Positions 1,711 to 60,043 of a DNA stretch of 64,000 nt are shown here, in pieces. Each line of letters opens with the position of its first letter. Positions within the stretch are counted from its first letter, which is position 1. The stretch comes from an uncultured Acidobacteriota bacterium (GTDB lineage Bacteria; Acidobacteriota; CAIWXX01). The position numbers were made by a program, and so were the translations under genes. Under the pieces are notes generated by a model. That model had not been told where the DNA came from and made no database searches. It saw only the letters and a list, made by a program, of their open reading frames with translations. Where the stretch lies: contig CAIWXX010000120.1 of assembly GCA_903916735.1 (NCBI GenBank), positions 75,746 through 139,745 of the forward strand, in the 5' to 3' direction.

Positions 1711-3222
1711 CTAGTTCTCCTCTCGCTGGACGATCATATACACCTCGCCGATCATCCGTCCGAATCGAGTGACACGGATCGGGTAAGTCCGACCTTCTCC
1801 GCCCATGGAGAAAGCCGGCAATAGAACATCAGTATCAATATCCTGGCCGCGATCCTCGCCATCTCCGCGGCCGCGGTAACCGAGAACGTTGACCTTCACT
1901 CCAGACTCGATGCCGAGGTCAATACCGATTACCTTCAGTCGGCTATGTGCGGGAATCTCGACGGCACATCCAGGCTCGATGCACATCACACCCTGTGGCG
2001 TCTCAAGGGTCACTGATTTCAATGCCGGCTCGACAAATCGAAGAACTACAGTGCCCGCGTCTTTTTTATTCCGGTACAATTTGACAATAAAAGAGTCACC
2101 CTTCTTATCCACAGAATGCTCGGCCATGAGATCTCGACCGGTATCGATGATGTAACCGTTATCACATCCATGATTGCTATTTGGATCGGGGACAAATCCG
2201 ATGACATTGACACGGGTGAGGGGATCATTGGCAAACCGGATCCGTTCACCTCGAACCAACCATAGATCCGTTCCAGCTTTCGCCTGCCTCGCGATACCAT
2301 CGATATCATACCTGAGCATCATCGTTTCGGCGGAACGCGGTGTGCAGGGAATCGATAGAGCAGGCTGAAGCTGCGAAGGAGATCTCCTGACGGCAGGATG
2401 TGTCGGCGGATGAGTCAGTATCGAATCGTCCGGTCCCAGACCATAGTGCATCAGGAATTCGTGAACCACCATCAGCTGATAGCTGGCTTTGACCTCGTCA
2501 CTAGCAAGGTTTTTCGATGTTTCAACACCGAAGGCCGGGATGCCGCAATGACTGACGGCGTAGTAGGTGGCGGATTTGCGCTGCTCCGGATGTTTCGTCC
2601 ATGGCTCCGCCGTCTCATGATTTGAAAAATGAAAGAGATCGTCGCTTTTCAGGATTCTCTGATTGATTCTTGTCAGGACCGTTTCAGCAGGATCCTGCAA
2701 AGGAACTGTCAATCCATATTTCCGTGAAAAAAACTCACGGCAGTCAGCGATAACGGATTGCCCATAGCAGGATGGATTCCGAAGCGCGCTACGATAAATG
2801 GGGTCGTAATAACCGGATCCATCATGGAGGTTCAGGAGAAGATCCGCCTGGGCGATATACGACTTGATGACCGAAACGATTTGACCATCGACTCCTGCAG
2901 GTTTCTCTTCACTCCCGAATTGTCGGTTCAGATCCACTCCGATCTCCCGAAGATGGGTCTGGATCGCCCGTGCGTTGGTATGGGGAATCACAATGAGGAT
3001 GCCATTGCTGATCCGAAGCTCCCGCAGCTTCTCCGCTGCCATGTAGGCGCCTGGTTCGTTTCCATGAATACCGCCCAGAACAAGCACAGTCCGCCCCGCT
3101 TCAGGGGCCCGCTGAATATACACATCCAAGCGATGATCCGTCCGCTCGAAATAGCCGACATGATACTGCCCCGGACTCGTGGGAAGAGATGTGAGAAGAA
3201 TCAGAGAGAGCAGCGGTATCAT
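1711..3222 (-). CDS. Secreted zinc carboxypeptidase-like protein, M14 / AstE-AspA (succinylglutamate desuccinylase/aspartoacylase) fold N-terminal domain plus ~250 aa C-terminal domain of unknown function
   Basis: N-terminal signal-peptide-like MIPLLSLILLTSLPTSPG. It carries the LVLGGIHGNEPG zinc-binding motif and NLHDGSGYYDP characteristic of the M14/AstE_AspA superfamily, the family of MpaA, Csd4 and Pgp1 peptidoglycan peptidases. 503 aa. Confidence 0.7.
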   Translation of the reverse strand: MIPLLSLILLTSLPTSPGQYHVGYFERTDHRLDVYIQRAPEAGRTVLVLGGIHGNEPGAYMAAEKLRELRISNGILIVIPHTNARAIQTHLREIGVDLNRQFGSEEKPAGVDGQIVSVIKSYIAQADLLLNLHDGSGYYDPIYRSALRNPSCYGQSVIADCREFFSRKYGLTVPLQDPAETVLTRINQRILKSDDLFHFSNHETAEPWTKHPEQRKSATYYAVSHCGIPAFGVETSKNLASDEVKASYQLMVVHEFLMHYGLGPDDSILTHPPTHPAVRRSPSQLQPALSIPCTPRSAETMMLRYDIDGIARQAKAGTDLWLVRGERIRFANDPLTRVNVIGFVPDPNSNHGCDNGYIIDTGRDLMAEHSVDKKGDSFIVKLYRNKKDAGTVVLRFVEPALKSVTLETPQGVMCIEPGCAVEIPAHSRLKVIGIDLGIESGVKVNVLGYRGRGDGEDRGQDIDTDVLLPAFSMGGEGRTYPIRVTRFGRMIGEVYMIVQREEN

Positions 3223-3227
3223 GAGCT

Positions 3228-4682
3228 TTATAGGGGGAGGTCGGAACTGAAAACTTCCCTGCCATCACGGTCGAACGCGTGAATCTTAACCAACACCGGA
3301 ACGAAAGGCACCTGGAACTCGGTATCGACTTGCTTGTACCGGCTGATTCTAAAAGAAATCCCCCGCCTGAACTCCAGACGCATATCAGAAACAACCCAAT
3401 CGGCCGGGTAAATCATCTTGGATGATCCATCCGCGGATGAAGCAATCAGAAATAGGAATCCCCGCAGCTCGCTCCCGAGTTCGCCGCTATTCACCAGGCG
3501 AAACCCGATCCGATATCCTCCATTGGCAAGAGCCGAAAATTGAACGTCTTGAAGCTGAATTACGGCGCCAGGTGCTTCAGGAATGGTTGCCTGTGGGGGA
3601 GGCGGCGGCGTGGATGTCGTCGAAGCATCTTCCTTAATTTCTTCCGGCTGTGGCTGCACCGTCGTCGTGCTTTGAGCGGGCGGCGTCACAGGCCCGGATG
3701 GCAGATGATCCGCATGCGATACGGGAGATCCCGTCACAGATGGCCGGCTTCGGGTTGACCGGTAATAGAAAGCTGCAATGACGGCGAGCACGGCGCAAAC
3801 CGCGAGAATTCCGCCGCGCTTTGCATTCCGTCGAAATGATAGCTGCCGGTCCAGGGCGCTGATCCTGGACGATTCATTACGGAAGAAAAAATCTGGAGGC
3901 AATGCAGGCTCAATCGCTGCTCCCTCGCTATTCCTTTGCGATGAAACCGCTGCCAGCGCACTCACGGGAGGCGGTGTTTCAGCGGCCATCGGATCATCAG
4001 AGACAATCAGCTTGTGTAGTTTTTGAAGGCCATTCAACATCCGCAACAGCTCGAGCTCCTCCATCAACCCAAGACCGATTAATTTACGAATGGAGTAGCG
4101 TCCGTTGAGGAGTGGCAGGATTTCCTTTTCCTTCGGGAGGAAATCAATCCCCTTGCCTTGGTCAGGGCCATTCATCATGAACTTGATATAGCTCTTGAGA
4201 TTAAGAACCTGACGAAGAAGGATGGCACTGCCCATGCGCCGCGCCCCTTCCATCACAATATTCGGGGTTTGAAAATTGAGACGCAGAACCTCGTCTCTTT
4301 CGAGTTCCCTCTGCTTGAAACTGTAGTCGAGGCCCTCCAACTGGAAGAGACTGTAAATGATCCGAGTCGCCTGAAATTTGATGCCCCAATACAAATCCTC
4401 GGGGGAGAGGAATCCTTTATAGACGAGCACGGTGCCGAGCATGGTGCATGCATTCATCAGCTTCTCAGCATCGATCAACTGTTCAGGCGAAATTTTCTCG
4501 GCCTCGATGAGCAGGTTGCCAAGGCTGTCCTGAGGGAGATTTGAAACAGCGAAAATAATCCGCCCTTGCTCGAAATAAACCTTTTTTTCGAAGGCCTCGC
4601 CCTTCACGAGCAGCTCGCCTGTTGCCTTTTCAAGGTAGAGGCGGCTGATCTCGCCGAGAAGTGCTAGCTCTTTGTTTTCCAT
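3228..4682 (-). CDS. DUF4388-domain single-pass membrane protein with Pro/Thr-rich linker and periplasmic C-terminal domain
   Basis: N-terminal ~110 aa matches the DUF4388 pattern (LGEISRLYLEKATGELLVKGE...KVYFEQGRIIFAVSN...LGNLLIEAEKISPEQL). One hydrophobic segment (GILAVCAVLAVIAAFYY), a PTPPAQSTTTVQPQP...TPPPPPQ linker, then ~140 aa C-terminal domain. Confidence 0.6.
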   Translation of the reverse strand: MENKELALLGEISRLYLEKATGELLVKGEAFEKKVYFEQGRIIFAVSNLPQDSLGNLLIEAEKISPEQLIDAEKLMNACTMLGTVLVYKGFLSPEDLYWGIKFQATRIIYSLFQLEGLDYSFKQRELERDEVLRLNFQTPNIVMEGARRMGSAILLRQVLNLKSYIKFMMNGPDQGKGIDFLPKEKEILPLLNGRYSIRKLIGLGLMEELELLRMLNGLQKLHKLIVSDDPMAAETPPPVSALAAVSSQRNSEGAAIEPALPPDFFFRNESSRISALDRQLSFRRNAKRGGILAVCAVLAVIAAFYYRSTRSRPSVTGSPVSHADHLPSGPVTPPAQSTTTVQPQPEEIKEDASTTSTPPPPPQATIPEAPGAVIQLQDVQFSALANGGYRIGFRLVNSGELGSELRGFLFLIASSADGSSKMIYPADWVVSDMRLEFRRGISFRISRYKQVDTEFQVPFVPVLVKIHAFDRDGREVFSSDLPL

Positions 4683-16317: not shown

Positions 16318-17730
16318 TTAACTGTATTGACGATTGGTCACATCGGATGTTTCACCATTGGACGCTCCAAGGGAATTGTAGAGATAACAATAACTCAAAC
16401 GTATCACACCCCATCTATTGCGGAAGAGAATGCCTGCTTCGAGAACACGTTCATCGGATTTGAATGAGACGATGTTTTGATTAAATTGGCGCCCTCTCAC
16501 TTCCAGACGAAGATCCCCATGCCGTTCCGTCAAAGAACGGCCCCACATATCCCAACTGACACCGATTGCCAATCCCAATTCGCGATAGTGCATATCTTTG
16601 ATGTTGCCGCCGGCTTCATGCAGACGATGAGACCCATGAGCTTGAACGTCGACAGCCAACCGATTTGTCGGCGACCAGTACTTGTCAATCTTCACATAAA
16701 TCATGGTCCCTTCAGCCATATTTTGGGTGATTCCATAAATGTTCAACCGCTCGCCCGGCGGAGGCATCACCCCCCAGTCGGACGCCCCGTATAGGCCTCC
16801 GTGGAATTCGGACTTCTGATGAACGTACTCAACACCAGACTCCATGCGCATGCCACGAAGCGGGATCAAAAGGTCATCTGTTGTGTCATAGTACCAACTG
16901 AGGTCCATTTGAAGTCGCTTGTCAGTCACCTGGTCTTGAATCGGCACATCGACTTCCGGGAAATCATATTCTTGCATCTGCTTGGCATAATTGATGTCGA
17001 ACGATACCCACTGATTTTTCTTGACCGGCACGGAGACGGTGAGAGAGGGAGAAATCGGTCGATGGGCTTTCACGGAAACCCGGGAGTATGTCGGCCGATC
17101 ATACTGAATGCCGACTCGCTCTCCCGTAAATTGTAAATTCACATTCAGAAAAACATGCTTCCCCATCAGATTGTAGTGGCTGAAGCCGACATTCAGCCCT
17201 GCGAATGGGGCATCGATAGCTTCCACGCTGGGACTTTCCCGGCTGACGATCGCGTATCCAATCCCATAGGCCCCGATGTTCATCCGCCCGCCGACCTCAA
17301 GGCTCTGCGTGCTGCTGCCGGCATCGGATGATGGCGGGAGCCCCGAATCGTAGGAAATGCCCTTGACATTTTCACGCCGCGTCATGTCGATCCAAGACTT
17401 TTCATACTGGAAGAGCAGGGGGTTTTCTTCAGAGACATGGATGACGAGAGCGTATGTTCCATAGGTTTCTCCTTTGGCAAGCGAGAAATCCGCAGAGAGA
17501 ATGAAAGACAGCCTGGTAATCCGCCGGAGTGCCAACACGAGCTCTTTCTCAGTGTAGAATTGCCCGAGCTTCAATCTGGATTCCTCCCGTATGATGTCTT
17601 TTGAGACCCACCTGGCTCCTTCAACATCGATCCGCGTAATATGAAACGCAGGCTCAGCCGCATCGGCACTGATGAAGTGTGCAGAGACGAGCAGAGCCAC
17701 GGTCGCTAGAATAAATCGATTTGCCTTCAT
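16318..17730 (-). CDS. Outer-membrane beta-barrel protein with one N-terminal POTRA domain (Omp85/TpsB superfamily)
   Basis: Signal peptide MKANRFILATVALLVSAHFISADA. POTRA-like ITRIDVEGARWVSKDIIREESRLKLGQFYTEKELVLALRRI. Long beta-strand-rich C-terminal region ending aromatic-rich. Confidence 0.6.
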   Translation of the reverse strand: MKANRFILATVALLVSAHFISADAAEPAFHITRIDVEGARWVSKDIIREESRLKLGQFYTEKELVLALRRITRLSFILSADFSLAKGETYGTYALVIHVSEENPLLFQYEKSWIDMTRRENVKGISYDSGLPPSSDAGSSTQSLEVGGRMNIGAYGIGYAIVSRESPSVEAIDAPFAGLNVGFSHYNLMGKHVFLNVNLQFTGERVGIQYDRPTYSRVSVKAHRPISPSLTVSVPVKKNQWVSFDINYAKQMQEYDFPEVDVPIQDQVTDKRLQMDLSWYYDTTDDLLIPLRGMRMESGVEYVHQKSEFHGGLYGASDWGVMPPPGERLNIYGITQNMAEGTMIYVKIDKYWSPTNRLAVDVQAHGSHRLHEAGGNIKDMHYRELGLAIGVSWDMWGRSLTERHGDLRLEVRGRQFNQNIVSFKSDERVLEAGILFRNRWGVIRLSYCYLYNSLGASNGETSDVTNRQYS

Positions 17731-17910
17731 TTTGTGATCCCTAGTTTAACAGCGATTAGTCATTTCATTCAATCTGGTGGCCATGCAATCTCCAGGCCAA
17801 CACACACGCCTTTCTTTCGTCGAGCAATATAGCCCATCGAGTACCCGTGTTAGTGTCCAAACGGCGACACGAAATGGCAAGATCTTCGGAACATGCATTA
17901 TCCCGTCCGA

Positions 17911-18072
17911 ACCTCTTAGGAATGCAGGAAGTAAGGAAACCGGGAACGAACCGACCATCGTCGGCACACCACATTTTCCGTTCCTGCATTCATCTCTTCC
18001 TGCATTCCTGAGAGGTCTGGAGTCGCTCTGTAGTGCGGCCACCGTCTTTGGTTCTGGCTGCGCCAGGTTAGG
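17911..18072 (+). repeat. Copy A of a ~165-nt structured intergenic repeat element (second copy at 58975..59139)
   Basis: About 82% identity with copy B over the ~95-nt core (ccgttcctgcattcat...ttcctgcattcctgagaggtc...gtctttggttctggctgcgccaggttagg). An upstream arm cctcttaggaatgcaggaag is the reverse complement (one G-U) of the core cttcctgcattcctgagagg, so a ~20-bp stem is possible. It lies in an 850-bp gene-free gap. Confidence 0.75.
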
Positions 18073-18586
18073 AAAATCCTACTATGATTCGCAGTGCGGG
18101 TAGAAAAAGTCGCAGCATGTTCGAGTGTGAAACATGAACGATGCTCGAATTTTCAGCCAGTTTGGTTCCAGACACATCCACACCTGGTGTGAACCGCATC
18201 GTTTTCCGCTGGCATAGTTCTTGCTCCACCTGAGTGAGAATGAAAATGCATATGAAGCTGGAATTCACATGATTGATTCCCGCTTATCTGATCCACAATC
18301 GCCGATTCGCAATATGTCTTTTCACCAGGAACACTCAACGGATGAGGGGTTGTCATGCGTCTCACAGACCATCAGTCATCGAGGTACTTCGGCTGAGTCT
18401 GTCATGAAGACACTCATGTCTCTTCCTTTGGTGACAACACCGACATTCTTGAACTCAATAGAAGGATGCCCAGCGCGGCTTAGGAACAACCTCGAACGGA
18501 TCGCTGGGCAATACAGGCCGGCCCGACCTCCGGGAAATAATTGGAGTTGGAGAAGATGTGCTAAGCGAAAGTGGCGCCAGGGGCTG

Positions 18587-19501
18587 TCAAAGGCGCCTCT
18601 TCCCGGTGTTTTTTTTATGACGGAGAACTGTGGTGATGCCCTGGAGGTCGGGCGGGAGCGGTGCATCGAATTGAACCGGATTCTGATTGGCCGGATGATT
18701 GAACCCCAGATGAGCGGCATGGAGAGCCAGCCGGGGGACAGGCGTCGGGTCGTGCTTGGGGTCTCCATAGAGTGAATCGCCCAGCACAGGGTGTCCCAGC
18801 CAGGTCAGGTGAACACGGACCTGGTGAGTGCGACCCGTACCAAGGGTGGCCTCGATGAGTGTCGCCACTCCGTATCGTTCGATCGGACGCACGCGCGTCT
18901 GTGCATTCTGAGCATCACGTGAGTGAGTGACAACGGCGCGCCGAGCGCCGGGCCGTGGGCGGCCGATCGCACGGTCAATGGCGCATTCTTCCTGCAGGTC
19001 ACCCTGGACAAGCGCCAGATAGCAACGGGAAATTGTGTGCACGCGAAACTGCCTCTGCAGAGAAGTCACTGCCGCGCCGGTCCGAGCCATCACCAGCAGG
19101 CCCGACGTATCACGATCAATCCGATGGACCACCAGAATCTTGCTATGATGACCCACGCGTCGCTTCACTTCATCAGTGACTCGGCTGATGAGTGTGTCCT
19201 TCTCCCGGTCCAAGGTCGGATGCACAAGCAATCCTGGGGGCTTATTGACGACGACGATGTGATCATCCAAAAAAACGATTTCGATGTTTCGCAACATGGC
19301 CTCAGGCACGCGGCGTGGTAGAGCCGGATCATGGGTGATGCGATCGGACGGGCCGAGCACGAGCCCGGGATCGGTGACAATTTCACTGTTGACCATCGCA
19401 TGCCCGACTTCGACTTCTCTTTTGGCGTGAGAGTAGGAAGATCCCAGTATCTGCTGGAGCGATCGTGCAAGGCGAACGGGCGAAGATCCTGAATGAATCA
19501 T
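18587..19501 (-). CDS. RluA-family 23S rRNA pseudouridine synthase (RluD-like) with N-terminal S4 domain
   Basis: HRIDRDTSGLLVMART catalytic Asp motif; THQVRVHL; 304 aa. Confidence 0.8.
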   Translation of the reverse strand: MIHSGSSPVRLARSLQQILGSSYSHAKREVEVGHAMVNSEIVTDPGLVLGPSDRITHDPALPRRVPEAMLRNIEIVFLDDHIVVVNKPPGLLVHPTLDREKDTLISRVTDEVKRRVGHHSKILVVHRIDRDTSGLLVMARTGAAVTSLQRQFRVHTISRCYLALVQGDLQEECAIDRAIGRPRPGARRAVVTHSRDAQNAQTRVRPIERYGVATLIEATLGTGRTHQVRVHLTWLGHPVLGDSLYGDPKHDPTPVPRLALHAAHLGFNHPANQNPVQFDAPLPPDLQGITTVLRHKKNTGKRRL

Positions 19502-35495: not shown

Positions 35496-35573
<78 letters not shown>

Positions 35574-37096: not shown

Positions 37097-37107
37097 GAAT
37101 TTAATGG

Positions 37108-37181
37108 TCGGGACGAGAGGATTTGAACCTCCGACCACACGCACCCCAAGCGTGTGCGCTACCAGGCTGCGCTACGTCCCG
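37108..37181 (-). tRNA. tRNA-Pro (anticodon GGG)
   Basis: Reverse complement: acceptor CGGGACG/CGTCCCG+A, identical D- and T-arms to the first tRNA-Pro, anticodon stem CACGC/GCGTG with loop TTGGGGT. Confidence 0.85.
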
Positions 37182-40962: not shown

Positions 40963-41887
40963 AAAGAACCCATTTCGCCCTGGTCCTCCCCTCAGATCGT
41001 GCCCCTTTTCGAGGTGCGAATGGACGGCGTTGATGCCGGTGTCGCTCTCAACATATGTCCGGCTCTTTGACGCGGACCAAGTGTCGCTTGATCTCATTCT
41101 TGCTATTGGCCGTTCCCATACCAGTGCCCGAAAATATGTATCATGCTCTTCAAATCATGTTGGGAACAGGTGCGGATACGGGCTTCTCGATACCAATTTG
41201 AGCCAGATAAGATTCTTACTTCCGCATCAGGGCGATCAATTGGGTGGCTGCATCCGATAATTGAAAGAGTCACTTCTGTATGACGAATTACACTATTTAA
41301 TAGATAGAATAATGGAAAATAGCAGAAAATGACGTGGCTATCGATCTGTCTAATACATATCAGCTATTCTAAGTTATTCATTTATAACTCAGTAATGCAC
41401 AAACCATGATATCAATTGATTCACGCACAAGAATCATAATTCTCTGGAAATTATGGGAATCCCCATGAAGCATTTAATAAAAACGAGTGCTGATTTTGTT
41501 AATTCTATAAAATCCATGGATTAATTATAATTATCGATGTGAATCAGCTTCGGATTCCACCAAGCTCCGCATCTCTGCCTCCTATTGCGGACCAATTGCT
41601 GAGAGCTTTTTTTAGTGCGTACCAGCCTTGAAGGGGTTGGTCCGGGATCATTATCCGAGGCTGAATTGAATATCTCCCATTAGAGGAAAAATGAGCTTCA
41701 TCCGACACCTTGGCCATATCGCCCTTCTTTGCCGGATGATTAAGAACCATACCGCCATCTTCGAGAATAACGTGGTATATTCTGCTCGTGAGAAACATTC
41801 GCCGTCGCAATCGAGAAGGGTTTCCGTCGCTTGCACTGAAGAGTACAATGCCCGCCGTGAAGCCGTCCACCGAGAGGAAGGAATCCG

Positions 41888-47142: not shown

Positions 47143-48004
47143 ATGGCCTTGGTGCTTATGGCAGTTCTGTTGATAATATCGGCGGTGGCCGGCGCTCCGA
47201 TCGAGGATCAGGCCAATGCAGGCATGAGCCCGAACCTGGCGCCGCTTCTGAAAGATCCGATGATGGGAATCCGCATCGAGGCCGCGCAGCGGCTTACCGG
47301 CGTGCCTTCGGAGATGTTGACGGAGCCGCAAACAGATGCCTTCAAGTCGACCATGGCAGAGTACCGGTCAAGCCTGGAGTTTACTGCTGACATGCCTTCC
47401 GACCGATACAATCGGGGCATTCTGGAACAGAGTCTGAACCAATTGGGGGAGGCTGAGCTGTAATACAGAAAAGCACTCGACATCGACGGCCAATTTCTAC
47501 ATGGCAGCCATGAATCTTGCGATTTTGCTCAGCCAACAAGGGCGTAATCCCGAGGCCGAGACGCTTCTGCGACAGGCGGTTGACACAAACCCGCACAACG
47601 CAGCCGCAGCATTCGACCTTGGGCTGCTGCTTGCGGAGATAAGTAATAAGAGCGAGGCGCTGCAGCGGCTCTGCGAAAGGCGCTGCAAGCTGACCCGACC
47701 ATGGCGCAAGCCGCGTATCTGCCGCCGGGCGGCCGAGCAACGCCCGGGCGAGCCCAAGTATGCATTCGCCCGCGCCTACTACCAGCTTCGAAATGGAAAG
47801 GAAAAGGACGCAGTGGCCACGTTGGACCCGCTGGTGAAAACCTATCCATCCTACGGCGATGCCGTCCTGATGCTCGACGGGCTCTACGAGAAACATGGCC
47901 GTGTGAAGGAGGCCGCCGAGGTCTACGATCGGGCTTTGGTCACGACAGGGCTGCCTGAGGAGTACAGATCACAGATCGCGGCGCGGAGGAATGCCCTGCA
48001 CTGA
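47143..48004 (+). pseudogene. Frameshifted TPR-repeat protein gene
   Basis: TPR-like coding is spread over three frames (ORFs 47143-, 47501-, 47701-) with stops between, e.g. ...LNQLGEAEL* / YRKALDIDGQFL / AAMNLAILLSQQGRNPEAE... / ...AYYQLRNGKEKDAVATLDPLVKTYPSYGDAVLML... Confidence 0.5.
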
Positions 48005-48061
48005 TCGGATTCCATTTGTGCCTGAACACCCTTACCAGACGCAGCATCTTGTCGCAATCCT
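47855..48061. repeat. Copy 1 of a ~207-bp direct repeat (TPR gene 3' end plus downstream sequence)
   Basis: ggcgatgccgtcctgatgctcgacgggctctacgagaaacatggccgtgtgaaggaggccgccgag...ctgatcggattccatttg...gcatcttgtcgcaatcct is repeated at 49540..49746 with ~87% identity. Confidence 0.8.
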
Positions 48062-49440: not shown

Positions 49441-49539
49441 ATGGAGAAAAATGTAATGAACGAAAGAAACAACCTCAACACGAGACAAGAGTCGCGTCGC
49501 GCCGCGCCGGATCCGCTGATGATCGACTTTCCGTCAGAC

Positions 49540-49746
49540 GGCGATGTTGTCCTGATGCTCGGCGGGCTCTACAAGAAACATGGCCGTGTGAAGGAGGCCG
49601 CCGAGATCTACGATCGGGCTTTGGTTCCGCCCGGGCTGCCTGAAGCATATAAAGCGCGGATCGCTGCGCGGAGGGATTCTCCGTGCTGATCGGATTCCAT
49701 TTGGGCCTGACCCCGCGCGCCAGACGCCGCATCTTGTCGCAATCCT
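49540..49746. repeat. Copy 2 of the ~207-bp direct repeat; includes a duplicated TPR C-terminal fragment (ORF 49441..49689)
   Basis: See copy 1. ORF 49441 ends ...GDVVLMLGGLYKKHGRVKEAAEIYDRALVPPGLPEAYKARIAARR, paralleling ...GDAVLMLDGLYEKHGRVKEAAEVYDRALVTTGLPEEYRSQIAARR. Confidence 0.8.
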
Positions 49747-55136: not shown

Positions 55137-55216
55137 AATGGTTTCCTTTAATAGTCTACTTAAAAAATAGAATAAATAGATTTAACAAAATCAACAACGG
55201 CACTAAAAAGGAGTTC

Positions 55217-58089: not shown

Positions 58090-58926
58090 GTGGCAATTTC
58101 GCTGAAAAGGAGAAACATCCTGCCCGGATTCGGGCTGACGATGGGGTTCACGCTCCTCTACATGAGCCTGATCGTCTTAATTCCACTGTCAACAATTTTC
58201 CTGAAGTCGAGTGAGATGACGTGGGCTCAATTCTGCCACGTTGTGACGGCGCCGCGTGTGCTGGCCTCATACAAGCTCAGCTTCGGCGCCTCTCTCGTGG
58301 CTGCTCTCATCAATATCCTCTTCGGAAGTCTCGTCGCCTGGGTTCTCGTGCGATACTCGTTCCCATGCAAGCAGATCATCGACGGCCTCGTCGATCTTCC
58401 CTTCGCTTTGCCGACAGCCGTCGGCGGCATTGCCCTCACCACTGTCTACGCTTCAACGGGGTGGATCGGGCGACTCCTGGAACCCTGGGGGATCAAGGCT
58501 GCGTTCTCGCCGCTCGGCATTGTGATCGCTCTGACCTTCATCGGCCTTCCCTTTGTCGTCCGAACCGTGCAGCCTGTCTTACAAGACTTTGACCGCGAGA
58601 TTGAAGAAGCTTCGGCCACACTCGGCGCCAACCGCCTGCAAACCTTCATTCGCGTGATCCTGCCCGGCGTCTTGCCTTCGATCCTGACCGGGTTCACACT
58701 GGCATTCGCACGAGCCGTGGGCGAATACGGGTCGGTCGTTTTCATTTCAGGGAACATGCCGCTGCGCACCGAGATCGCTCCCTTCCTGATCATGACGAAA
58801 CTGGATCAGTTCGATTACACCGGAGCAACCGCGATCGCCGCGGTCATGCTCGTTGTTTCTTTCGTTCTCCTTCTGGCGATCAATATGTTGCAATGGTGGA
58901 GCGGCCGGCAAAAGGCTGCCGACTGA
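58090..58926 (+). CDS. cysT: Sulfate ABC transporter permease CysT
   Basis: Close collinear match to E. coli CysT (LPGFGLTMGFTLLY...DLPFALPTAVGGIAL...FVVRTVQPVLQDFDREIEEASATLGA). Confidence 0.9.
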   Translation: MAISLKRRNILPGFGLTMGFTLLYMSLIVLIPLSTIFLKSSEMTWAQFCHVVTAPRVLASYKLSFGASLVAALINILFGSLVAWVLVRYSFPCKQIIDGLVDLPFALPTAVGGIALTTVYASTGWIGRLLEPWGIKAAFSPLGIVIALTFIGLPFVVRTVQPVLQDFDREIEEASATLGANRLQTFIRVILPGVLPSILTGFTLAFARAVGEYGSVVFISGNMPLRTEIAPFLIMTKLDQFDYTGATAIAAVMLVVSFVLLLAINMLQWWSGRQKAAD

Positions 58927-58974
58927 AATCTGCGCATAAAATGGCGGAAATTGTGATGGAGCGGAATTGTGAAT

Positions 58975-59139
58975 ACCTCTCAGGAAGTCTGGAAGGGAGG
59001 AATGCAGGACTGTTTTGGTCAACCACCGCTGGCCGAAATAAAAGTCCGTTCCTGCTTTCATTTATTCCTGCATTCCTGAGAAGTCCGGAGTCGCGAGTAG
59101 TGCGACCTCAGTCTTTGGTTCTGACTACGCCGGGTTAGG
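58975..59139 (+). repeat. Copy B of the ~165-nt structured repeat element, filling the cysT-cysW intergenic region and ending 1 nt before the cysW ATG
   Basis: See copy A (17911..18072); core 59046..59139; upstream arm acctctcaggaag...ggaatgcaggac. Confidence 0.75.
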
Positions 59140-59140
59140 T

Positions 59141-60043
59141 ATGGGTGGAGGAATGACGTCCCCAATCATCGCAGAGCCGGCGGCAAAGGCATCGCGCACA
59201 ATCACCGAACCGCCTCTCGTCAAGTGGATGCTGATCGCGATCGCCCTCGCATTCCTCGCCCTCGTACTCCTCGTACCTCTTGTGGTCGTTTTCGATCAGG
59301 CATTTGAGAAGGGCATCGAGGTTTATTTCGCGGCCATTCGCGAACCCGATGCGCTGTCGGCGATTCGCCTGACCCTTCTCACCGCAGCAATCGTCGTTCC
59401 CCTGAACCTTATTTTCGGCCTTGCCGCATCGTGGTGCATCGCCAAGTTCGATTTCGTCGGGAAGAACATCCTGACAGCAATCATCGATTTGCCTTTTGCA
59501 GTCTCTCCGGTTATCTCGGGATTGGTTTTCGTTCTGCTTTTCGGAGCGCGAGGCATCTTCGGGCCATGGCTGATCGCTCACGACTTCAGAATCATTTTCG
59601 CTTTTCCGGGCATCGTCCTGGCGACGGTTTTCGTGACTTTCCCACTGGTCGCTCGCGAACTGATTCCTCTCATGCAAGCACACGGCATCGAAGAGGAAGA
59701 GGCTGCGATTTCGCTCGGTGCCCGCGGCTGGCAGACCTTCCGGCGAGTCACGCTGCCCAATATCAAGTGGGCGTTGCTCTACGGCGTCATTCTTTGCAAC
59801 GCTCGAGCCATGGGCGAATTCGGCGCCGTCTCAGTTGTGTCAGGACATTTGCGGGGACTCACGAACACCATGCCCCTTCATGTAGAAATTCTCTACAACG
59901 AATATAATTCCGTCGCGGCTTTCGCTGTCGCGTCGCTCCTGGCCATGCTGGCCATCGTGACGCTAATCGCGAAAAGGTTGGTCGAATGGAAGACACACCG
60001 GCCATTCCAGGCCGCCGACAGCATCCGTCAGGAAGAGGACTAG
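59141..60043 (+). CDS. cysW: Sulfate ABC transporter permease CysW
   Basis: Homologous permease fold with EAA-like loop (...[24 protein letters not shown]...). Confidence 0.9.

Follow-up and report, generated by a model that had tools for sequence, protein, structure and literature searches.

The 64,000-nt stretch analysed here (hereafter the window) comes from an uncultured Acidobacteriota bacterium (GTDB lineage Bacteria; Acidobacteriota; CAIWXX01; GenBank assembly GCA_903916735.1, contig CAIWXX010000120.1, positions 75,746 to 139,745 of the forward strand) and harbors two collinear copies of a repeat, A and B, that lie 41 kb apart in unrelated contexts. Copy A is found in a gene-free gap (17731..18586), and copy B occupies the junction between the sulfate-transporter genes cysT and cysW, where it is best read as an insertion. 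Both copies are composites built on one core in two opposite orientations, and related units are repeated in the nearest sequenced relative and recur in other phyla and in phages. The element is probably a non-coding, non-autonomous dispersed repeat, of the kind represented by repetitive extragenic palindromes (REP), bacterial interspersed mosaic elements (BIME) and miniature inverted-repeat transposable elements (MITE). The initial annotation of the gap had proposed either a structured non-coding RNA (ncRNA) or a MITE-like element, belonging to a dispersed family and not to a unique regulatory site. Its MITE-like alternative and the dispersed family are both supported by the insertion of copy B, the repeated units in the relative and the core hairpins in other phyla and phages, whereas the ncRNA alternative fares badly, as detailed below.

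The repeat, first delimited to about 165 nt, is real, but comparison with a related genome extends it to about 222 nt in copy A and about 210 nt in copy B. Its parts are as follows:

17851..18072 (+): element copy A, a composite repeat of about 222 nt (repeat families, inverted repeat, alignment to copy B, nhmmer profile matches)
17851..17951 (-): left half of copy A, a reversed unit of the U type described below (gacacgaaatggcaag...cctcttaggaatgcaggaag...; profile match 17953-17848, MAFFT alignment)
17906-17948: purine-rich left arm of copy A, part of the reversed U-type unit
17977..18021 (+): right arm of copy A, which is the core, an 8-nt periodic pyrimidine array TCCGTTCCTGCATTCATCTCTTCCTGCATTCCTGAGAGG (profile match 17977-18015 on the plus strand, E = 2e-6)
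18022..18072 (+): tail of copy A (AGTCGC..GTAGTGCGGCC..GTCTTTGGTTCTG..CGCCAGGTTAGG), 86% identical to the tail of copy B
58930..59139 (+): element copy B, about 210 nt, the whole cysT-cysW spacer
58933..59010 (-): left half of copy B, a reversed U-type unit with a degenerate left arm at 58975-59010 (profile match, E = 2e-6, and alignment)
59045..59139 (+): right arm (core, 59045-59089) and tail (59090-59139) of copy B, 90% and 86% identical to those of copy A
octamer array units, in their two written forms: (GCAGGAAA)n and (UUUCCUGC)n

The arms of copy A (43 nt, 79% complementary) form a 43-pair hairpin at 17906-18021. The 20-bp pairing with one G-U described initially is genuine and represents the outer part of this hairpin, joining cctcttaggaatgcaggaag (17912-17931) to cttcctgcattcctgagagg (17996-18015); the positions first given for it (17911..17930 and 17989..18008) were off by 1 and 7 nt. 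The 181-nt fold of copy A reaches -84.3 kcal/mol (z = -7.84), a stability equalled by none of 200 shuffles, and the hairpin of copy B is much weaker (z = -2.49). Each arm is an array of an 8-nt unit, in one orientation on the left, (AGGAAnnn)n, and inverted on the right, (nnnTTCCT)n, where the arm terminates in TTCCTGAGAGG. The direct repeat TTCCTGCATTC that had been noticed in the core is indeed present twice in copy A (17981-17991 and 17997-18007), and belongs to the 8-nt periodic array found in both arms of both copies. Matches to the pattern TTCCTNNNTTCCT number 17 in the window against 4.35 expected, and 12 of them fall inside the two elements.

Downstream of the right arm, A and B have in common a tail of about 50 nt with the conserved motif GTCTTTGGTTCTG...GCC.GGTTAGG, and the offset between the copies is 41,067-41,068 nt; the conserved tail and the nearly collinear second copy 41 kb away had both been correctly recognized. 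The right arms and tails are 86-90% identical, two aligned stretches of 250-260 nt are 78% identical, and the copies differ by a 1-nt indel within the conserved part of the tail. No third copy was detected in the window by a pattern scan or by nhmmer. The tail was not recovered in other loci by an nhmmer profile, nor in plasmid and phage collections by blastn, and a metagenome scan for TTCCTGAGA N24-36 GTCTTTGGTTCTG gave three chance matches in coding DNA.

The nearest sequenced relative is an Acidobacteria metagenome-assembled genome (MAG), GCA_016191015.1, with 62% identity in RluD, which was also found by the 17-mer DNA scan described below (L015, L046; array-bearing and reference loci are designated by L numbers throughout). 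This genome contains four copies of a repeat of about 230 nt, called U, within 37 kb. They are 72-95% identical to each other, and two of them lack exactly 16 nt, corresponding to two octamers. The core common to U and to the window reads TCCGTTCCTGCA(+/-16 nt)TTCCTGAGAGG(A)GTYCGGA. A profile of U searched against the window with nhmmer gives four matches, which cover both halves of both elements in opposite orientations:

17953-17848 (-): core and 3' flank, E = 1e-6
17977-18015 (+): core only, E = 2e-6
59010-58933 (-): left half of copy B, E = 2e-6
59045-59089 (+): core of copy B

A direct MAFFT alignment of U with the window elements agrees with these matches. Since the U profile matches both halves in opposite orientations, each window element is a composite: its left half is a U-type unit in reverse, and after a loop come a core in forward orientation and a tail seen only in this genome. 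In GCA_016191015.1, U copies precede a Uma2 gene and a histidine kinase gene and run in the same direction as these genes, and one copy is convergent with a LytTR regulator gene, while copy A points toward the 3' end of rluD, 515 nt away. Copies are present downstream of rluD in both the source genome and the relative. However, these were rejected as orthologous or syntenic because their U units are oriented oppositely with respect to rluD, and the shared placement is read as a coincidence or a hotspot.

Copy B lies between two genes of the sulfate transporter:

58090..58926 (+): gene for a cysT-like sulfate ABC permease, flanking copy B upstream (open reading frame (ORF); tblastn matches to the sulfate-transporter loci L087-L089)
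59141..60043 (+): sulfate ABC permease gene cysW, flanking copy B downstream (start codon at 59141 or 59153; homologs named CysW)

It fills the whole 214-nt spacer between the cysT stop (58926) and the cysW start, whereas only 2-12 nt separate the two in three genomes (L087-L089, three contigs read among those with the best-scoring CysW homologs). Because of this difference, the 214 nt of repeat DNA in the junction are best interpreted, from the arrangement of the genes, as an insertion. The insertion replaced the usual junction through which cysT and cysW are coupled. The start of cysW is ambiguous, with ATG codons at 59141 and 59153 and a Shine-Dalgarno-like sequence only 1-2 nt upstream of each. 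In L087-L089 (ERZ250395xx contigs), the best CysW homologs are called as proteins of 493-508 aa in which cysT and cysW run together; the tblastn matches there switch reading frames, which looks like the result of assembly frameshift errors.

The core also recurs outside Acidobacteria. A scan of one-genome-per-species contigs for the exact 17-mer TTCCTGCATTCCTGAGA gave at least 75 matches. Most of the 75 listed are chance or coding matches, for example to the C-terminal tail of FtsZ (DIPAFLR), and about 12 carry octamer arrays, usually with an inverted partner arm; the remaining matches lack such a context, and those inspected fall in coding sequence. The source genome is not among the matches listed. 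The MAGs bearing these arrays are labelled Chthoniobacterales, Verrucomicrobiota, PVC group, Sandaracinaceae, Deltaproteobacteria, “Rickettsiales” and Acidobacteria. The window and a Deltaproteobacteria MAG share the segment TCCGTTCCTGC...TTCCTGAGAGG without a difference, a conservation that exceeds the searched 17-mer (to GAGAGG). The basic core unit consists of two to five tandem 8-nt units (NTTCCTGC) followed by TTCCTGAGAGG. Head-to-head units form hairpins with loops of about 12 nt (L074) to about 230 nt (L016b, L085), and L085 is a perfect 28-bp terminal inverted repeat (TIR) around a small ORF, located between two genes of a phage contig. Other arrangements include a tail-to-tail pair (L016), tandem clusters (L026, L039) and solitary arrays (the U family and several phage loci). 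In L026 (Sandaracinaceae MAG CAYZQM010000058.1, 6900-7300), tandem repeats of about 258 nt each contain one octamer hairpin and a conserved spacer of about 75 nt.

Two members lie in-frame within genes. In a Chthoniobacterales MAG (JBBSEI010000020.1; L013, 3915-3996), an octamer-array hairpin inside mnmA adds 26 residues (TLRNAGSEEEKWELSSSFLPSCLPES) between the conserved motifs ATGHYA and KDQSYFL of MnmA. In the phage contig IMGVR_UViG_3300046463_000619 (L100, about 3960-4040), the hairpin TCAATCAGGAAAGCAGGAAAGCAGGAA...TTCCTCACTTCCTGATTCA is in-frame within a continuous ORF of 388 aa, whose N-terminal part reads like a ClpP-type prohead protease and whose C-terminal part reads like a coiled-coil scaffold. 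The remaining members are intergenic wherever the neighboring genes could be identified, and the orientation of the members to their neighbors is mixed.

On the megaplasmids of Gemmatirosa kalamazoonensis, hairpins made of a related GC-rich octamer, (GGCAGGAG)n / (CTCCTGCC)n, are present at at least 25 places, 20 on the 1.04-Mb plasmid 2 and 5 on plasmid 1; one example is the (GGCAGGAG)4 / (CTCCTGCC)4 hairpin of L094 (3001-3067; strain KBS708, plasmid 2, NZ_CP007130.1, 856154-856220). These were the only useful match when the element and the consensus hairpin were searched by blastn against plasmid and phage collections, which returned no insertion sequence (IS) and no annotated feature. A linear plasmid of Streptomyces sp. 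NBC_01136 (L095, about 2990-3025) carries an intergenic and possibly related tandem array (GGCAGGAA)4 beside a GC-rich hairpin, and the (GGCAGGAA) array is found at two places in this record and at two in a second Streptomyces plasmid record. The 43.5-kb phage contig IMGVR_UViG_3300047409_000209 (L098, L099, L101) has at least four arrays TGAATCAGGAAAGCAGGAAAGCAGGAA, all on one strand and some of them lacking a partner arm. The three whose surroundings were read lie just upstream of apparent Shine-Dalgarno sequences and start codons, and judging from this placement the TGAATCAGGAAAGCAGGAAAGCAGGAA arrays of this contig may serve the phage as a regulatory or leader motif and not be mobile DNA.

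We consider only tentatively that the octamer-array hairpins of the different phyla have a common origin, and that the window element represents Acidobacteriota within a cross-phylum superfamily of mobile hairpin elements, so far undescribed and characterized by octamer arms GCAGGAAN / NTTCCTGC and a terminus CCTCTCAGGAA...TTCCTGAGAGG. Such a superfamily might extend over Acidobacteriota, Verrucomicrobiota, Myxococcota, Gemmatimonadota and phages, could sit in-frame in genes, and would be moved by an enzyme, or bound by a conserved protein, that reads the array. The octamer-array core was not found described in the literature, in which searches of incomplete coverage by sequence strings gave primer matches only, and searches by keywords gave general papers on REP and MITE and the precedent of the TIR-flanked Y1 transposases, but nothing on this element. 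A new repeat family in an uncultured acidobacterium is ordinary, while an octamer-array core found across five phyla and phages is unusual.

The dispersed repeat that we favor fits the insertion in a tight junction, the high local density in two related genomes, the variation by whole octamers, the varied arrangements, the variable internal segments, the presence in phages and the in-frame copies. Under this reading, two inverted cores would produce the long hairpin, the left one carrying the flank typical of the U family of the relative and the right one the lineage-specific 50-nt tail. Copies would arise through DNA insertion at intergenic sites, as for copy B at the cysT-cysW junction. We infer that the mobilizing enzyme acts in trans; it would be encoded outside the window and would probably recognize the core or its hairpin. 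By analogy, the leading guess for this enzyme is a single-strand HUH/Y1 transposase, given the lack of visible target-site duplications and the reported occurrence in Acidobacteria of TIR-flanked Y1 transposases with repeated TIR families (PMC3733652). Any effect on expression would be a by-product; for example, the imperfect 40-bp stem in the cysPTWA transcript may serve as an RNase III site or as a stabilizer.

Several observations weigh against this interpretation. No transposase or other mobilizing gene turned up, in the course of work that included no dedicated search of the source genome for one. Between the distant arms of L016, where a transposase was looked for, there was only an ORF that reads like a pseudouridine synthase. 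No consistent target-site duplication was found at A, B, L012, L013, L027, L074, L100 or L101, although the ends are inexact and short duplications could be missed; in L085 there is only AAAAATG, an ambiguous case, close to either end. Nor is the core unit itself palindromic, and a GTAG/CGTC tag adjoining a conserved stem is absent; the tail does contain a GTAG, but the stem beside it is not conserved from A to B. The genomes that provide the “empty” cysT-cysW sites are distant (about 70% G + C, against 54%), and the insertion is therefore deduced from the usual tight arrangement of the two genes rather than from an isogenic empty site. The copy count for the source genome is two and comes from the window only. 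Finally, the left halves of A and B, judged by eye from the alignment, are far more diverged than the right halves and tails, so that an additional assumption is needed (two insertions, different subfamilies, or conversion). This divergence suggests that the left and right units may have separate histories, through a second insertion targeted to the core, through different subfamilies or through conversion.

The element is also not a classical representative of any of the known families. It resembles REP, BIME and REP doublets forming hairpins (REPIN), which are moved by REP-associated tyrosine transposases (RAYT) of the Y1 type, in being short, non-coding, intergenic and dense, and in occurring as singletons, head-to-head or tail-to-tail dimers and clusters. 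Hairpin-forming dimers are shared with REPIN, and copies in operons between ABC-transporter genes, as well as the lack of target-site duplication, with REP. However, it cannot be called a classical REP because its unit is a direct octamer array and not a tagged palindrome. Its arms measure 35-45 nt, whereas a REP is a GC-rich palindrome of 20-40 nt, it has no GTAG/CGTC tag at a conserved stem, and its core spans phyla, whereas REP families are usually limited to a species or a genus. Features in common with MITE are TIRs of 25-45 bp, a size of 80-300 nt, a dispersed and intergenic location and an internal segment of about 12 to about 230 nt, in one case with a small ORF. It is not a classical MITE, because no target-site duplication was seen at the copies inspected and no parent IS with these ends was found in the plasmid and phage collections; moreover, many arms are solitary, and the window copies have unequal ends (U-type flank versus tail). 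The Rickettsia palindromic elements (RPE) similarly place a palindrome in-frame in genes, as in the MnmA gene of L013 and the phage ORF of L100, but their sequence and hosts are unrelated, and both window copies are intergenic. TIR-flanked Y1 transposase elements (“TIRtrons”) have been described in Koribacter, Terriglobus, Acidobacterium and Granulicella, where their TIRs can form repeated DNA families as dimers or clusters and share the motif GGGGWSAS (Di Nocera et al. 2013, PMC3733652). They are alike in their Acidobacteria hosts and repeated TIR families, but GGGGWSAS is not a motif of the window element.

Among the alternatives, a selected cis-acting element is improbable but deserves consideration; it would be either an operon hairpin setting the stability or processing of the cysPT versus the cysWA part of the messenger RNA, or an octamer array bound by a protein as DNA or RNA. 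E. coli REPs are located in malE-malF and in hisJ-hisQ, and copy B lies inside an operon in the same way. The core is strikingly conserved across phyla (TCCGTTCCTGC...TTCCTGAGAGG), and the four solitary purine arrays of one phage contig are on a single strand, three of them ahead of apparent start sites. In addition, the unit CAGGAAG fits the consensus of the CsrB repeats, which is reportedly CAGGA(U/C/A)G. A role in cis is contradicted by the mixed orientation to neighboring genes, by the absence of a downstream gene for about 500 nt from copy A, and by the decay of the copy B hairpin (11 of 43 pairs broken, z = -2.5). Some copies lie within coding sequence, no terminator-like or promoter-like site accompanies the element, and the GGA motifs are buried in the stem when the hairpin forms. 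The resemblance to the CsrB/RsmZ sponge RNAs is thus by motif only (repeated CAGGAAG-like GGA motifs), as the element differs from them in its paired motifs, the lack of promoter and terminator, the lack of strand bias and the copies in operons and genes.

A multicopy trans-acting small RNA (sRNA), with the CU-rich core UUCCUGCAUUCCU as an anti-Shine-Dalgarno seed or the purine arm as a protein sponge, is quite unlikely. It would agree with the location of copy A in a large gene-free gap and, by reading of the U family, with a core that would be unpaired there between flanking stems. The tail consensus also folds somewhat better on the plus strand (-16.6 versus -7.3 kcal/mol), with G-U pairs, a 5-bp closing stem and possibly one U-A to C-G double change, a comparison that is uninformative with two sequences. 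However, the tail is not more stable than its shuffles (plus strand, z = -0.03 and +0.60), significance being limited to the inverted repeat, and 17 elements or parts show about equal folding of their two strands, so that there is no G-U strand bias. When the 43 pairs of copy A are followed in copy B, 26 are unchanged, 5 are kept through a one-sided change, 1 is compensated and 11 are broken, in a comparison of two sequences. The copies thus differ by pair-breaking changes as well as by a 1-nt indel. The former fail to preserve the pairing, a result that the initial annotation would have counted against it if accompanied by a total of two copies; elsewhere, however, there are related copies. 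Scans of the plus strand reveal neither promoter-like nor terminator-like sites around either copy, an intrinsic terminator was detected in neither region, and no T run follows either hairpin. Sigma-54 and extracytoplasmic function (ECF) promoter readings of the octamer array were tried by hand and discarded for misfit of the spacing. A scan of the whole window with Rfam at gathering thresholds gave only two tRNAs, and no Rfam match was obtained for the U copies of the relative. Permissive scans of both copies gave the plant miRNA-precursor model MIR1437 at 27 bits, against a cut-off of 168 bits, and others at E>4; the former was dismissed because this model scores any long hairpin. Copy B is moreover embedded in an operon, and the inferred density of copies, 2 per 64 kb in the window and 4 per 37 kb in the relative, is typical of repeats and not of sRNA genes. 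RNA-type constraint is absent, and the structured ncRNA first envisaged for the gap has nothing left to sustain it in the Rfam scans, the equal folding of the strands, the unstructured tail, the broken pairs or the flanking signals.

A simple segmental duplication in two copies, or a chance hairpin belonging to no family, is very improbable and already contradicted. Only two copies are present in the window and the tail is found nowhere else, but homologous units are repeated in the relative (profile E of 1e-6 to 2e-6, both orientations), about 12 of the 75 listed 17-mer matches in unrelated genomes carry the octamer arrays or an inverted arm, and none of the 200 shuffles gives a fold as good as that of copy A. 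That the region encodes a small protein is hardly credible: ORFs of 81-108 aa cross both copies, and ORFs of 74 and 168 aa were called automatically in the gap in some assemblies, but those of the gap reach no Pfam cut-off, the 1-nt indel between A and B in the conserved part leaves no reading frame shared through the tail, and frames are open on both strands because the ORFs traverse a palindrome.

The gap that contains copy A lies between two minus-strand genes:

16318..17730 (-): Omp85/POTRA-like gene, 470 aa, of which the gap is the upstream region (sub-threshold Pfam matches to PF01103 and PF07244)
17731..18586: gene-free intergenic gap, in which only 17851-18072 is repeat
18587..19501 (-): gene for an RluA-family pseudouridine synthase (rluD), whose 3' end borders the gap (PF00849 homologs)

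The RluD homologs that bear names are all from Acidobacteria/Acidobacteriota. The absence of a credible ORF in the gap, as first annotated, agrees with the ORF list and with Pfam, in which no ORF of the gap reached the cut-off. Outside copy A, the gap consists of about 120 nt and 514 nt of unique sequence, for which blastn and nhmmer gave no further match. Three of the four public assemblies encoding an identical 470-aa protein show the same spacing of about 856 nt between the Omp85-like gene and rluD, and the gap is therefore no artefact of assembly; the fourth differs in that a later start was chosen for rluD, which has no bearing on the gap. The sole promoter-like match in the gap (17826-17853 on the minus strand, CTAACA-16-TATATT, 9/12) is directed toward the Omp85-like gene, with a -35 hexamer overlapping copy A at its left end; one site against 0.9 expected is not significant. 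A plus-strand terminator near 18574-18620 was rejected because its T run falls within the rluD coding sequence.

Small dispersed repeats affect operon expression, genome rearrangement and assembly quality, and almost nothing is known of them in Acidobacteriota and other poorly cultured soil phyla. For annotation, repeat DNA is the appropriate label for the gap of copy A and for the cysT-cysW spacer, and not ncRNA gene or small ORFs. If the hairpins of five phyla and phages share one origin, they would represent a miniature element of unusually broad host range, and, as a cultured strain whose genome is complete, Gemmatirosa kalamazoonensis KBS708 would be a tractable host in which to find the mobilizing activity.

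Some other features are present in the window. A 246-nt direct repeat (47816-48061 and 49501-49746, 82% identical, 1,685 nt apart) probably corresponds to paralogous genes or domains. An AT-rich inverted repeat of 40 nt (41488-41527 and 55157-55196, 75% complementary), whose arms are 13.6 kb apart and fall in the two 2-kb bins with the lowest G + C (0.503 and 0.497) in the second half of the window, could mark the boundaries of an inserted segment. The two tRNA genes are the following:

35496-35572 and 37105-37181 (-): tRNA-Pro genes with anticodons CGG and GGG, 1.6 kb apart

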